64,000 bases of DNA from Candidatus Wolfebacteria bacterium RIFCSPLOWO2_01_FULL_47_17b (GTDB lineage Bacteria; Patescibacteriota; Minisyncoccia; UBA6257; JAGOQP01): assembly GCA_001793865.1 (NCBI GenBank), contig MGIS01000023.1:60137-124136 (forward strand), read 5' to 3'. Shown in pieces: positions 257 through 58,000 of this stretch; within the stretch, counting starts at the first letter, position 1, and every line of letters starts with the position of its first letter. The position numbers and the translations under genes are program-made. The notes below the pieces were generated by a model. The model had not been told where the DNA came from and searched no databases. It saw only the letters and a program-made list of their open reading frames with translations.

Positions 257-291
257 TGAAGTTCAATCTCCGCAGACCGAGGTTGAACCTC
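257..291. repeat. Degenerate copy of the AGGTTCAACCTC / GAGGTTGAACCT inverted-repeat hairpin family
   Basis: gaagttcaatctcc-gcagac-cgaggttgaacctc; compare 13468, 28803, 34319, 57057. Confidence 0.5.
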
Positions 292-307
292 ATGGATTTT
301 TTGTTCC

Positions 308-733
308 TTATTCTTTTACTTCAATCCCCATTGAGCGGGCGGTGCCAGCAACTATTTTCATTGCCTGTTCCACGTCGTATGCGTTCAAATCGGCTTTTTT
401 CTTTTCAGCTATTTCTTTTAATTGCGCTTTCGTTACGCTTCCAACTTTCTGTTTGAGTATATCCCCCGCTCCTTTTTCCACTCCGGCCGCTTTTTTCAAA
501 AGATCGGATGCTGGCGGCGTTTTGAGCACAAAATCAAACGAGCGGTCTTCGTACACCGTAATAACCGCGGGAACAATGGATCCCGTCATCTCTTTGGTGG
601 CGTCGTTAAACTGCTGACAAAACTGCCCTAGGTTAATGCCGTGCGGACCAAGCGAGGTGCCCACTGGCGGCCCCGGGTTTACGGTGCCTGCCGGAAGCTG
701 TATTTTAATTTTGGTTTTTATTGCTTTGGCCAT
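308..733 (-). CDS. rplK: 50S ribosomal protein L11
   Basis: [25 protein letters not shown]...; full-length L11 signature. Confidence 0.93.
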
Positions 734-735
734 AT

Positions 736-1323
736 TTACATTTTTTGGATTTGCAGTGAGTCTATTTCGGTGATGGTTTCACGCCCAAATACCGGTATAG
801 ATACTCGCACACGACCGTGCTCTTCGTCAACCTCGGTAATCTTGCCTTCATAATCCTTGAACGGGCCGTCCACAACCCGCACCAGATCACCAACCGCGTA
901 TTCTACTTTGAATTTCGCTTCATGATCCTCTTCCATCCGCGAGAGCAGGTTTTCCACCTCACTCTTTGATACCGGTGTTGGTTTGGTTGGATCGGGACCT
1001 ACAAATCCCATCACGCGGGGCGTATTGCGAACCACATACCACGAATCTTCGTTGAGTATCATATCAACAAGCACGTATCCCGGGTAGATCTTTTCCTCGG
1101 TTACCTTGCGCTTGCCGTTCTTGATGCGGATTTTCTTTTCTTTGGGGACCGTGATGCTGAAAATCTTGTCGTTCATTGAGAGCGACTCCACTCGCTGTTT
1201 GAGGTAGCGAGCCACAGCGTCTTCGTAACCGGAATACGTATGCACCGCGTACCAGGCACGCAGAGATTTCGTTTTGTCGTCAATATGCAAACCCTTTGGC
1301 TTCTTTGTTTCGCTTTGTTCCAT
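736..1323 (-). CDS. nusG: Transcription termination/antitermination factor NusG
   Basis: NGN domain plus C-terminal KOW ([22 protein letters not shown]); conserved secE-nusG-rplK order. Confidence 0.9.
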
Positions 1324-1326
1324 AGT

Positions 1327-55016: not shown

Positions 55017-55041
55017 AAAGCGGCGTAATGCCGCTTTTTGC
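55017..55041. terminator. Hairpin aaagcggc-gtaat-gccgcttt plus T-run; bidirectional terminator at ndk 3' end
   Basis: 7-bp GC stem, TTTTTG following. Confidence 0.6.
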
Positions 55042-55610
55042 TACTTATACAAGACGGTTTCTCTCGGATTTACATATTCCAGTAATTCATCGGGTGTGAA
55101 CCACACATCAATTTCGTATTGAGAATCGAATTCGTTTGCCGATGCGTGCACGAGGTTACGAACTGCTCGATTATGTGTATCCGCGATGTGATACGAATCA
55201 ACGGTGAAATCCCCCCGTATGGTTCCAACATCCGACTGCAACGGTTCGGTTGAACCGACGATCTTCCGAGTCACCTTGATTGCTTGGTGGCCCTCCAGCA
55301 CGAATGCCACGACTGGCGCGGAGGAAAGAAACGTCACGAGCCGGTCGACGATTGATTGACCAAGTTTTTTCGGATCGTCGTGAACTTCAGCCCCACCTTT
55401 GCGCTTACCTTCTATAGATCGATTTCCAAGTGCTTCAATTTCCTCCTCGTTTTTTACATAGTGCTTGTACGCAAGCTCCTTTGAGGGTTGCAGGAGTTTC
55501 ATAGCAACAAGCTTCAATCCCACCCGCTCAAACCGGGAAATAATTTCGCCGATAAGGTTGCGTTGTACGGCATCGGGTTTTAATAACACTAACGTTCGTT
55601 CCTTTGTCAT
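55041..55610 (-). CDS. ndk: Nucleoside diphosphate kinase (extended form)
   Basis: ERTLVLLKPDAVQRNLIGEIISRFE..., active-site His region. Confidence 0.8.
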   Translation of the reverse strand: MTKERTLVLLKPDAVQRNLIGEIISRFERVGLKLVAMKLLQPSKELAYKHYVKNEEEIEALGNRSIEGKRKGGAEVHDDPKKLGQSIVDRLVTFLSSAPVVAFVLEGHQAIKVTRKIVGSTEPLQSDVGTIRGDFTVDSYHIADTHNRAVRNLVHASANEFDSQYEIDVWFTPDELLEYVNPRETVLYK

Positions 55611-55611
55611 A

Positions 55612-57012
55612 TTATTTTTCTTTTTTGTTTATCTTTAAATGTAATTCGTCCAGCTGTTTCGTATCCAGTGCCGAGGGGCTTTCCATCATAAGGTCCCGGG
55701 CATCTCCTGTCTTGGGGAATGCGATTACGTCACGGATGCTTTTTTCCTGTGCCAGTATCATCAGCAACCGGTCCAGCCCCCAGGCGATGCCTCCATGCGG
55801 TGGAGCTCCGCTCGCAAGGGCTGTTAGCATGTGTCCAAAATTCTTTTCAATCTGCTCTTTTTCGTAGCCGATTATTTCAAACACTTTGCGCAGGACATCC
55901 GGTTGGTGCGCGCGTATACTTCCGCCTCCTATCTCATATCCGTTGAGCACCACATCATACTGCGTGGTAAGAATGGATCCCACGTCTTGTTTATCCATAA
56001 GTTGGTTCATATGCTCCGGTTTCGGCGCGGAGAACGGATTGTGTGTAAATGTATAGCCGGGCTCGCCCTTCGTAGCTTTAGTGAAGAAGGGAAAATCGAC
56101 TATCCAGCAAAATGCCAGCTCATTCGAATTTTCCTTATCTTCGCGTAGGTCCGGGCGATCTGTCTTATATTTTTCCATCGCCTCCGCGTAGGTAAGCCGC
56201 GGGAATGGGATTTCTTTTATTTTCTTATCTGGAGCAATCGCGCTCACAAGAGCAATCAGCAGTTCCTCGTTGAGCCGCATCACGTCCTCTTGCTCCACAA
56301 AGCTCATCTCAAGATCCAGCTGGGTGAATTCCGGCTGACGGTCTCCGCGCGTATCCTCATCTCGAAAACAGCGTGCGATCTGGAAGTACTTCTCAAATCC
56401 CGCCGCCATCAGAAGCTGCTTATACTGCTGCGGAGACTGCGGCAAGGCGTAAAAGCTTCCGGGGTATAGTCTGGATGGCACGACGTAATCACGCGCTCCT
56501 TCGGGGGTTGATTTGGTGAGAATGGGCGTTTCAATTTCATAAAACCCTTCCGTATCCAGGTAGTCACGTATGAATTTTATTACCCGGTGCCGTAACGCTA
56601 TGTTTTTTTGAAGACGCTCGCGGCGCAGATCCAGATATCTGTACTGCATACGCGTTTCTTCCCCTACTTCATAGCCATCGGTCTGCAGATCAAATACCGG
56701 CGTCGCGGCCTCATTGAGTATTTCAAGTTTCTTTACTTCAAATTCTACCTTTCCGGTCGGCACATCCGGATTCTGCATATTCTCCGGCCGCTCTTTTACA
56801 AGCCCTCTCATTTTCACCACCCACTCCGAACGGAGCGTTTTTGCTTTTTCGTACAGATCCGTTTCGCACCACGGTCCGAACACCGCCTGCACGGAACCGC
56901 TCCGGTCACGCAGATTAATGAATATGAGTTTCCCATGGTCGCGCCGAACCGCAACCAAGCCGCGCAGTTCAACCTCCTCTCCGACGTGGTCAAGTATTTC
57001 CAGTATGGACAT
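55612..57012 (-). CDS. aspS: Aspartyl-tRNA synthetase; start probably MSILEILDH
   Basis: OB anticodon-binding domain, class II motifs, FRDEDTRGDRQPEFTQLD, GGIAWGLDRL motif 3. Confidence 0.88.
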   Translation of the reverse strand: MSILEILDHVGEEVELRGLVAVRRDHGKLIFINLRDRSGSVQAVFGPWCETDLYEKAKTLRSEWVVKMRGLVKERPENMQNPDVPTGKVEFEVKKLEILNEAATPVFDLQTDGYEVGEETRMQYRYLDLRRERLQKNIALRHRVIKFIRDYLDTEGFYEIETPILTKSTPEGARDYVVPSRLYPGSFYALPQSPQQYKQLLMAAGFEKYFQIARCFRDEDTRGDRQPEFTQLDLEMSFVEQEDVMRLNEELLIALVSAIAPDKKIKEIPFPRLTYAEAMEKYKTDRPDLREDKENSNELAFCWIVDFPFFTKATKGEPGYTFTHNPFSAPKPEHMNQLMDKQDVGSILTTQYDVVLNGYEIGGGSIRAHQPDVLRKVFEIIGYEKEQIEKNFGHMLTALASGAPPHGGIAWGLDRLLMILAQEKSIRDVIAFPKTGDARDLMMESPSALDTKQLDELHLKINKKEK

Positions 57013-57055
57013 AATATCTACACCATACCGCATTCGCCTGCTTGTTTGCAACTGA

Positions 57056-58000
57056 TCAAGGTTCAACCTCGCTCACATTGAGCGAGGTTGAACCTTGATC
57101 TATTTTCTGCACTCTTACTGAACCATTTTCCGTATACACCCGCACCGTCCCCTGCTCGTCGGTTCGCAGAATGTGCGAACCAACGGAACTGAGGCGCGAA
57201 AGCGTCTCGGGGGTGGGATGACCGTACGAGTTTGTACCTACTTCAATAACCGACAACAGAGGTGAAACTTCCCGTACAAACAACATAGACGACGAATACT
57301 TCGATCCATGGTGCGGTACTTTCAGTATGTCCGCATCGATATCGAATAGCGATACTATAATGTCTTCCACCCGTTCGCTTATATCCCCCGCAAACAATAC
57401 CGCGTAATCCGTATGCTTGTATTTTAATACGATGGATTTCTCATTATCCGTTTTTGCGTTGTATAGGGGGTCCGGCCACAGCACCGTTGCTGTCACATCT
57501 TTATGTGTAATACGATCGTGCATATCCAATTTGTAAACGGCCACTCCTTTCTGTTTGGCGTAGTCGAGCACCTCCTCCCATGTCTCGTGGTATCCATTTC
57601 CCACCAAAAGCACACCCACCGAGAACCGATCCAGCACCTGGTATATGCCTCCCGCGTGATCTGAGTCCGCGTGCGTAAGAAGCACCACATCTATATATTT
57701 TTTATCTTCTAATACGCGCTCCAGTTCAATACTCGTTTTCCCGTCCCGTCCCGCGTCTATGAGCATATGTATCCCCCGGTGCGCGACAAGTTCCGCGTCC
57801 CCTTGTCCGATGTTCAAAAAATACACACTTGATTCGTCCGAATCGGAGAAAATCGCGCGTGCGCAGAGTATATTCGCGACTGCAAGCACTACTCCTATGA
57901 CAATGAAAATTCGTACCATAGCTTTTTTTTGCGTGCATATGCCGCCAGTCCGATGCACGCGGCATAATACACGATTGTCACGAGGATCGACTTTGTCCAA
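57056..58000 (-). CDS. comEC: ComEC/Rec2 C-terminal metallo-beta-lactamase domain protein (separate ORF)
   Basis: N-terminal TM then MBL motif LLTHADSDHAGG; overlaps upstream competence-domain ORF in another frame. Confidence 0.65.
   Translation of the reverse strand: MDKVDPRDNRVLCRVHRTGGICTQKKAMVRIFIVIGVVLAVANILCARAIFSDSDESSVYFLNIGQGDAELVAHRGIHMLIDAGRDGKTSIELERVLEDKKYIDVVLLTHADSDHAGGIYQVLDRFSVGVLLVGNGYHETWEEVLDYAKQKGVAVYKLDMHDRITHKDVTATVLWPDPLYNAKTDNEKSIVLKYKHTDYAVLFAGDISERVEDIIVSLFDIDADILKVPHHGSKYSSSMLFVREVSPLLSVIEVGTNSYGHPTPETLSRLSSVGSHILRTDEQGTVRVYTENGSVRVQKIDQGSTSLNVSEVEP
57057..57097. terminator. Perfect 18-bp inverted repeat CAAGGTTCAACCTCGCTCA-cat-TGAGCGAGGTTGAACCTTG after stop of 57056..58000
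   Basis: Perfect stem; same family as 28803. Confidence 0.6.

Follow-up and report, generated by a model that had tools for sequence, protein, structure and literature searches.

A dispersed family of short palindromic repeats, probably akin to REP and RPE sequences, in genomes of the Candidate Phyla Radiation

Repetitive extragenic palindromic (REP) sequences are palindromes of 20–40 bp that have been described in more than 80 species of 8 phyla. They occur as singletons and as inverted dimers, in most cases following unidirectional or convergent open reading frames (ORFs) at a distance below 20 bp; their termini often donate the stop codon, and their intragenic copies are concentrated in uvrA/B/D, polA, recBCD, dnaE, tRNA-synthetase and tRNA-modification genes (Di Nocera et al. 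2013, PMC3733652). The Candidate Phyla Radiation (CPR, or Patescibacteria) is a huge and mostly uncultivated group of bacteria with tiny genomes, whose non-coding DNA is almost uncharted. Here we describe a hairpin repeat found in a 64,000-nucleotide stretch of DNA, referred to below as the window, from a metagenome-assembled genome (MAG) of Candidatus Wolfebacteria (Parcubacteria, CPR) recovered from Rifle groundwater. The unit of the repeat is the near-palindromic 13-mer RAGGTT-S-AACCTY; a typical copy consists of two such units inverted round a spacer of 3–16 nt, and either strand can fold into a hairpin of 13–22 bp. We favour, with a probability of roughly 60%, the view that these hairpins are miniature palindromic elements of one dispersed family, with a behaviour like that of REP sequences and Rickettsia palindromic elements (RPEs) and without the GTAG/CGTC tag of the former.

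Five copies are present in the window. A first-pass annotation of the stretch had reported inverted repeats after rplK, within leuS, at the prfA stop, after mreB and after the metallo-β-lactamase (MBL) gene of ComEC; direct reading of the sequence confirmed all five, and an inverted-repeat scan placed four of them among the eight longest inverted repeats of the window (I1, 34303–34370; I3, 57054–57100, 22 nt, 100%; I7, 250–299; I8, 28802–28843). The gene names were upheld by Pfam searches of the host and neighbouring genes (L11, LeuS, RF-1, MreB, and ComEC Competence and Lactamase_B), which also showed the gene downstream of the copy at 57 kb to be AspS. The perfect stem at this last position had been given as 18 bp and is in fact 22 bp long. 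The copies, together with one hairpin that is not a member, are as follows.

198–235, no strand assigned: context only, not a member of the family; a canonical bidirectional A-tract/T-tract terminator hairpin with an unrelated stem, 15 nt downstream of the rplK copy.
250–299, minus strand: rplK copy, subtype A, 8 nt past the rplK stop; arms 258–270 and 279–291, loop 271–278, sense loop GGTCTGCG.
13466–13503, minus strand: leuS copy, subtype A, in frame within leuS; arms 13468–13480 and 13489–13501, sense loop GGTCTGGG.
28802–28843, plus strand: prfA copy, subtype B, between the convergent prfA (plus strand) and a galT/HIT-like gene (minus strand).
34314–34359, minus strand: mreB copy, subtype A, 2–6 nt past the mreB stop; arms 34320–34332 and 34341–34353, sense loop GGTTTGGG.
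57054–57100, minus strand: comEC copy, subtype B, a perfect 22-bp stem with a 3-nt loop.

Each arm of the window copies holds GAGGTT-S-AACCTC, a palindrome but for its centre base, and the partner arm carries the complementary centre. In subtype A (rplK, leuS and mreB) a 13-nt arm is followed by an 8-nt loop and a second 13-nt arm, whereas subtype B, found at the prfA/galT-like and comEC/aspS junctions, has arms of 19–22 nt (CAAGGTTSAACCTCGCTCA) and a loop of 3–4 nt. Although they stand at unrelated loci, the three A copies have identical arms and near-identical loops; the two B copies share identical 19-nt arms and differ by a flipped centre pair. Beyond the common arms the flanks differ, yet they are often self-complementary and so lengthen the stem, as ATCCATG/CATGGAT does in the rplK copy, where the left arm is degenerate (GAAGTTCAATCTC), and as CACAC/GTGTG does in the mreB copy. 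Stop codons are built into both B copies: the TGA of prfA (28808–28810) and that of the galT/HIT-like gene (28837–28835, minus strand) fall in the arm cores GGTTGAACC, and the outer stem of the comEC copy, which precedes the aspS start by about 42 nt, overlaps the TGA of the ComEC MBL ORF (57058–57056). The leuS copy was identical across four independent assemblies and is therefore not an assembly artefact.

It had been proposed that the shared arm is conserved beyond what a hairpin requires. With at most one mismatch allowed, GGTTCAACCT was matched 23 times against 3.12 ± 1.84 expected, a number reached in none of 100 shuffles. The exact cores (10 per 64 kb) all lay within the five hairpins, every one of them paired, and no singletons were seen. 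Folded as RNA, the hairpins gave −28 to −43 kcal/mol with z-scores of −6.0 to −9.6, the rplK copy standing at −28.3 kcal/mol (z −6.3) and the comEC copy at −43.2 kcal/mol (z −9.6). A census of hairpins with at least 11 paired bases yielded 25 in the window, 5 with the common core and 20 with unrelated stems. Four of the copies had been called terminator-position hairpins; their place at gene 3′ ends was confirmed, but the terminator label proved unjustified, as no sense-strand U-tract was present on any of the four intergenic window copies. Rfam searches with the five hairpins returned nothing at the gathering threshold and, in E-value mode, only sub-threshold generic miRNA-like hairpins. As a possible kissing partner for the loop, CCCARACC was found outside the hairpins at chance level only.

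For a census beyond the window, one genome per species (185,579 species) was scanned with the pattern GGTTSAACCT-N(4-24)-AGGTTSAACC, and at least 118 loci were obtained; the family counts given below rest on the matches listed. Had only the window copies existed, the first-pass annotation would have considered the repeat a local coincidence. This is clearly not so, and its alternative suggestion of a common, REP-like origin is supported by a palindromic repeat dispersed across CPR genomes far more widely than was then supposed. Among the matches listed, 77 loci were CPR-named, 10 had uninformative or doubtful labels and 31 belonged to other phyla. The CPR names among them included Saccharibacteria, Paceibacterota/Parcubacteria, Moran-, Levy-, Uhr-, Taylor-, Kaiser-, Yanofsky-, Vogel-, Curtiss-, Azam- and Nomurabacteria, along with others. 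The centre bases of the two arms, again among the matches listed, were complementary rather than the same at a ratio of 81:3 in the CPR-named loci and of 25:22 in the remaining loci; since about 1:1 would be expected by chance, the hairpin form is specific to CPR genomes. The whole viral collection, which served as a background control only, gave 56 loci with a complementary-to-same ratio of 8:58, nearly all of them tandem or direct coding repeats.

Masking of the seed matches left 17 occurrences of GGTTSAACC in 598 kb of CPR loci, where about 4.6 would be expected under uniform composition; many of these were single extended palindromes. Among the matches listed, the part that is invariant across the family is RAGGTT-S-AACCTY, the core-to-core spacing is 15–27 nt with modes at 19 and 23–24, and the medians are 15 bp for the perfect stem and 6 nt for the loop. 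A metagenome search with the subtype-A pattern AACCTCGGTYTGGGGAGGTT, in a collection that evidently lacks the Rifle assemblies, recovered one locus only (L185), an unrelated contig on which a 13-8-13 hairpin with variant arms and the sense loop GGTTTGGG stands 8 nt past a stop. Neither sequence-based nor topic-based literature searches turned up an account of an element of this kind in the CPR. Hairpin-form copies with the core RAGGTTSAACCTY were also observed in MAGs not labelled as CPR, namely L022, L094 and L107 (Thermodesulfovibrionia) and L063 and L098 (Elusimicrobia UBA11697); in each of these they sit on more than one contig, and they reflect either a real spread beyond the CPR or mis-binning.

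Besides occurring in many CPR/Patescibacteria lineages, the element appears to have spread, within single genomes, to many sites that are unrelated to one another. In the Taylorbacteria genome MHRY01, a stretch of about 53 nt (AGAAGCCCCGAGGTTGAACCTTGGATCCGAAGAAAGGTTCAACCTCGGGGCTTCT) with sharp boundaries recurs in four copies, each on its own contig and between unrelated flanks. Copy numbers of five in the 64-kb window, at least 4–5 in the sampled loci of one Taylorbacteria genome and 5–7 per 8 kb in L118, L117 and L035 were seen, the last three loci holding dense clusters of singletons plus dimers. Singletons and dimers occur together in other CPR loci; the window holds dimers only.

Placement relative to genes was determined for 97 hairpin-form copies, comprising those at CPR and unclear loci among the matches listed plus those of the window. 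Of the 97, 44 (~45%) lay deep within open stretches 100 or more codons long; a further 38 lay no more than 150 nt past the end of such a stretch, mostly less than 20 nt, and 15 were found elsewhere. CPR genomes are about 90% coding, so that 45% in ORFs amounts to a depletion relative to random insertion, with copies concentrated at gene 3′ ends. There are loci at which most gaps between genes hold the motif, single or as an inverted pair and usually no more than 15 nt past a stop; some family copies donate the stop codon. A T/A tract accompanied 8 of 53 non-ORF copies (15%) and 4 of 44 in-ORF copies. Copies accumulate where they are tolerated, just past the stops of unidirectional or convergent genes.

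They are also tolerated in surface-loop regions of essential proteins, where they stand in frame, in any of the three frames, and are simply translated. The in-ORF copies are read in frames 22/11/11 as the peptides EVQP/EVEP, RFNL/RLNL or GST, and this use of all three frames excludes a conserved peptide as the cause. By Pfam, 18 of the 20 longest host ORFs were housekeeping genes; verified hosts are UvrA, ValS, PolA, PheT (twice), GlmS, ArgS, Mur ligases (two), MiaB-like, UvrC (twice), GatB, TsaD, UDP-GlcNAc 2-epimerase, DprA, an HhH-GPD glycosylase and a class-V aminotransferase. In the window, the LeuS insert of 33 nt adds EVQPRSGEVEP to a length-variable loop of the anticodon-binding domain, and these extra residues are missing from 12 of the 13 nearest homologs. 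A second lineage-specific insert, NENSSFPRRRESI, was observed in the same gene at about 13618–13657 (residues ~612–625); most close homologs are without it, and no GGTTSAACC hairpin is associated with it. Some long LeuS homologs (P0025 and others, from Gracilibacteria and other CPR) have extra Pfam matches, including PF01797 (Y1 transposase) and NUDIX, which suggests that CPR leuS genes have undergone further insertions or fusions.

Orthologous sites were then compared. A leuS ortholog (L123, 76–79% identical) has GAAGCTTGGCTTC-GGTCTGGG-GAAGCCGAGCTTC at the same site, again as a 13-8-13 hairpin with the loop unchanged, and differs from the window copy by five fully compensated pairs and one G·U. 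Directly past the mreB stop of L180, whose MreB is 90% identical, stands AGGGTTTGACCTT-GGTCTGGG-AAGATCAAACCTT; at the same 3′ end L182 (84%) has an unrelated hairpin and three more distant relatives have none. The comEC–aspS junction of the sister genome (L186) holds a perfect palindrome of unrelated sequence; in a more distant relative there is no hairpin at that position. Four-fold degenerate sites are only 37–40% identical between the genomes bearing the leuS and mreB copies, compared with 27% by chance, and outside the hairpin the mreB 3′ flank could not be aligned, the hairpin being the only conserved feature there. In an alignment of six subtype-A sequences, 97.4% of cells were paired and 9 of 13 pairs had changed on both sides, values reached in none of 500 shuffles, and the loop was nearly invariant (GGTYTGGG). 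On the sense strand GGTYTGSG was present at all four independent subtype-A loci (rplK, leuS, mreB and L185). The hairpin and the subtype-A loop are therefore kept over long evolutionary times, while the core may drift in some lineages.

If the family does behave as REP and RPE sequences do, its dispersal would call for some factor acting in trans, with the palindromic core or the folded hairpin as its target of recognition. At gene 3′ ends, by analogy with REPs, the transcribed hairpin would act as a barrier to 3′–5′ exonucleases or as a processing or translation-coupled signal, and its role there would not be intrinsic termination. Several results weigh against an element of this kind. No target-site duplication was visible in the window or in the Taylorbacteria MHRY01 copies, and no presence/absence polymorphism within a species was observed. 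Neither the five window copies nor the Taylorbacteria copies have the GTAG/CGTC tag in their flanks, and Pfam detected no Y1/RAYT (REP-associated tyrosine transposase) or DDE transposase among the 65 window ORFs. The folding energies of 60 CPR hairpins showed no bias between sense and antisense (p = 0.95); RNA-level selection consequently has no general support. Three imperfect copies had seemed better paired on the sense strand through G·U pairs, but selection on RNA only was dropped as a general claim after the 60-copy test, and the rplK and L180 copies, with one G·U and one C·A each, are symmetric between strands. Quasi-palindrome correction by template switching is a known mutational process, and the paired changes might stem from it without selection. 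The phylum-wide core, the near-invariant loop and the strong covariation exceed the needs of a purely selfish repeat and could point to a functional cis-signal.

That last possibility was given the most weight among the alternatives. It is conceivable, though doubtful, that the RAGGTT-S-AACCTY hairpins are a phylum-specific cis-element read by a conserved CPR protein, such as a hairpin-specific nuclease or transposase or an RNA 3′-end factor. We consider it unlikely that the hairpin is a dedicated cis-signal, read through its stem core and/or GGUYUGGG loop by a protein or RNase conserved in the CPR (for instance a homodimeric double-stranded RNA enzyme like RNase III), and that it marks mRNA 3′ ends for factor-dependent termination, processing or stabilisation, the in-ORF copies being by-products or regulatory. 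The conservation of the core across many CPR classes would fit such a signal, as would a subtype-A loop that stays near-invariant while the stems vary with compensation, its sense-strand form at all four independent loci, the start of most intergenic copies about 20 nt or less from a stop, and a hairpin that is the sole conserved feature of the mreB 3′ flank at saturating divergence. It accords poorly with the 45% of copies that lie within essential ORFs in three frames, with the lack of folding bias across 60 copies and with the rarity of U-tracts. Nor would it be expected that a canonical terminator follows the rplK copy and that many unrelated terminators exist, that the corresponding junctions of sister genomes bear an unrelated hairpin or lack one altogether, or that orthologous copies drop the core and retain the pairing.

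This loss of the core with retention of pairing is the opposite of what a sequence-read signal predicts, and it bears equally on the improbable reading of the motif as a DNA uptake signal for natural competence, like the DNA uptake sequence (DUS) of Neisseria or the uptake signal sequence (USS) of Pasteurellaceae. The short motif is over-represented, it has coding-region copies in all frames and inverted pairs at gene ends, and the window encodes ComEC and type IV pilus genes; natural competence of Saccharibacteria (PMC10187176) also counts in its favour. All cores in the window, however, are inverted pairs with complementary centres and no singletons, and they number about 10 per 64 kb, well under the density of such signals. 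Densities of DUS and USS are at least tenfold higher than this, and to our knowledge the known uptake signals are family-specific, not phylum-wide. Least credible of all, with next to no weight left to it, is the explanation that ordinary terminator hairpins evolved independently and share an arm by local coincidence, or that an EVQP/EVEP peptide motif is mirrored in the DNA. Four of the five window copies do stand at gene 3′ ends and the leuS copy is translated, but the core enrichment (23 against 3.1, 0 of 100 shuffles), the same core hairpin in at least 80 CPR loci and the reading of in-ORF copies in three frames already refute this explanation; over half of all copies are moreover non-coding, and those of the window are without a sense-strand U-tract. 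Readings as attC, DUS, T-arm mimicry or a CIRCE- or LexA-like operator were ruled out on arrangement, density or position.

As a dispersed REP- or RPE-like family, the hairpins would place one 13-nt core in many CPR classes, landing in essential tRNA-synthetase, repair and cell-wall genes without destroying them. Lineage-specific protein insertions and gene-end structure both arise from the family, which also offers a practical marker for CPR contigs and suggests a trans-acting partner that could be found by phylogenetic profiling. Should the cis-element reading be the true one, selection would be acting on the two-fold-symmetric stem core, and in one subfamily also on the GGUYUGGG loop, as determinants of recognition; the element would then serve as a signature of CPR genomes and as a way into the unexplored RNA and DNA biology of the radiation.

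Other hairpins and unusual genes were also noted in the window. A second, unrelated hairpin family with G-rich arms, AGGGATTAG and CTAATCCCT, is intergenic at 27996–28058 (rpmE–prfA) and 46283–46334 (fusA–rpsG); a looser GT-rich/AC-rich hairpin at the 5′ end of comEC (59313–59372) is perhaps a further member, and these hairpins fold at −25 to −31 kcal/mol. A splitting of prfA by a palindromic insert at 27992–28069 was considered and rejected, as the upstream ORF translates as rpmE (L31) and the palindrome is intergenic. The RF1 gene itself (28070–28810, plus strand) encodes 246 amino acids only, its PCRF match starting from model position 98, with the N-terminal domain seemingly missing. ComEC (57056–59352, minus strand) is encoded by two overlapping ORFs, DUF4131 plus Competence and then MBL; the same split was called in L186 and L188 and so looks conserved, not a frameshift error.

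An unusually long gap of about 870 nt (33487–34360) separates mreB from the next Pfam-supported gene region. Strong hairpins at 33713–33742, a small ORF without Pfam match and the palindrome GCTGGCGGAT at 33584–33615, which is repeated at 37766–37805, were found in it, and with −88.7 kcal/mol over 300 nt the gap may hold an unannotated RNA. Two mreB paralogs are present 5 kb apart (34361–35398 and 40487–41530, minus strand). Between rplS and a tRNA gene (62243–62332) stand two adjacent perfect palindromes, one with a stem of 18 bp and the next, flanked by A7/T7, with one of 24 bp; jointly they fold at −53 kcal/mol.

An intein that includes an HNH endonuclease domain (Intein_splicing match at residues 446–871) splits the gyrB gene (1558–4794, minus strand). 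Further selfish or homing-type items cluster among tRNA genes (8464–8703, 6097–6600 and 11147–11404 on the minus strand; 50463–50960 on the plus strand): a free-standing group I intron match (77 bits) lies between tRNA-Pro and a STAS-domain gene, outside every tRNA called by ARAGORN, a LAGLIDADG ORF adjoins tRNA-His, a stand-alone GIY-YIG ORF of 85 amino acids adjoins tRNA-Ser, and an ORF with HTH and HNH_repeat matches was also seen. In the type IV pilus cluster (17671–20855, minus strand), an Avd-like '23S rRNA intervening sequence protein' (PF05635) stands beside two Laminin_G_3 proteins. This pairing might hint at the target of a diversity-generating retroelement; no reverse transcriptase was seen in the window.

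Comparison with known systems separates the family from most other classes of short repeat. Members of integron attC sites share with it a formal match, GTTCAAC...GTTGAAC to the RYYYAAC...GTTRRRY boxes, but 35 of the 93 CPR copies among the matches listed have the reverse order, and attC sites are imperfect hairpins of 57–141 bp in cassette arrays with intI, whereas the CPR hairpins are shorter and perfect and the window has neither array nor integrase. Miniature inverted-repeat transposable elements do not provide a match either, the flanks being self-complementary or unrelated and not direct repeats, with no insertion sequence bearing these ends in the window. Like an intrinsic terminator, a copy can form a stable G+C-containing hairpin just past a gene; unlike one, it has no sense U-tract in the window and a T/A tract in 15% of intergenic members, its stem is common to the family, and near half of the members are in ORFs. 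With DUS and USS the family shares an over-represented short motif, coding copies, inverted-pair hairpins at gene ends and the presence of competence machinery. The usual profile of those signals (about 1 per kb, mostly single, sequence conserved at orthologous sites) is nevertheless not that of the CPR motif, which hardly ever stands unpaired, has far fewer copies per kb and, in orthologs, conserves pairing over motif.

The closest resemblance is to REP sequences and their BIME-like inverted dimers. Short palindromic units, singletons and inverted dimers that form larger hairpins, and, as it appears, dispersed multi-copy occurrence within a genome are common to both, as are a position near 3′ ends, stop-codon donation, intragenic copies in repair and aminoacyl-tRNA synthetase genes, and a hairpin kept by paired changes; at 34–47 nt with stems of 13–22 bp, the window copies also have the length and stem-loop form of a REP. 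The CPR family differs in having no unpaired GTAG/CGTC tag, which defines the known REP superfamilies, and in a shorter unit (13–19 nt) that is itself a near-perfect palindrome; Pfam found no RAYT among the 65 window ORFs. A single core moreover spans a whole phylum that is not among the 8 surveyed, and the share in ORFs, ~45%, is far higher. The family also resembles RPEs, which are in-frame palindromic inserts in many unrelated essential genes of a small-genome, host-dependent bacterium, add a short peptide and have no known transposase. RPEs are, however, about 100–150 bp long, restricted to a genus and read as a conserved peptide in one frame, in contrast to CPR elements of 30–55 bp that are read in three frames (22/11/11) and occur phylum-wide. 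The hairpins described here thus appear to extend the REP/RPE phenomenon to the CPR, where it has apparently gone undescribed.

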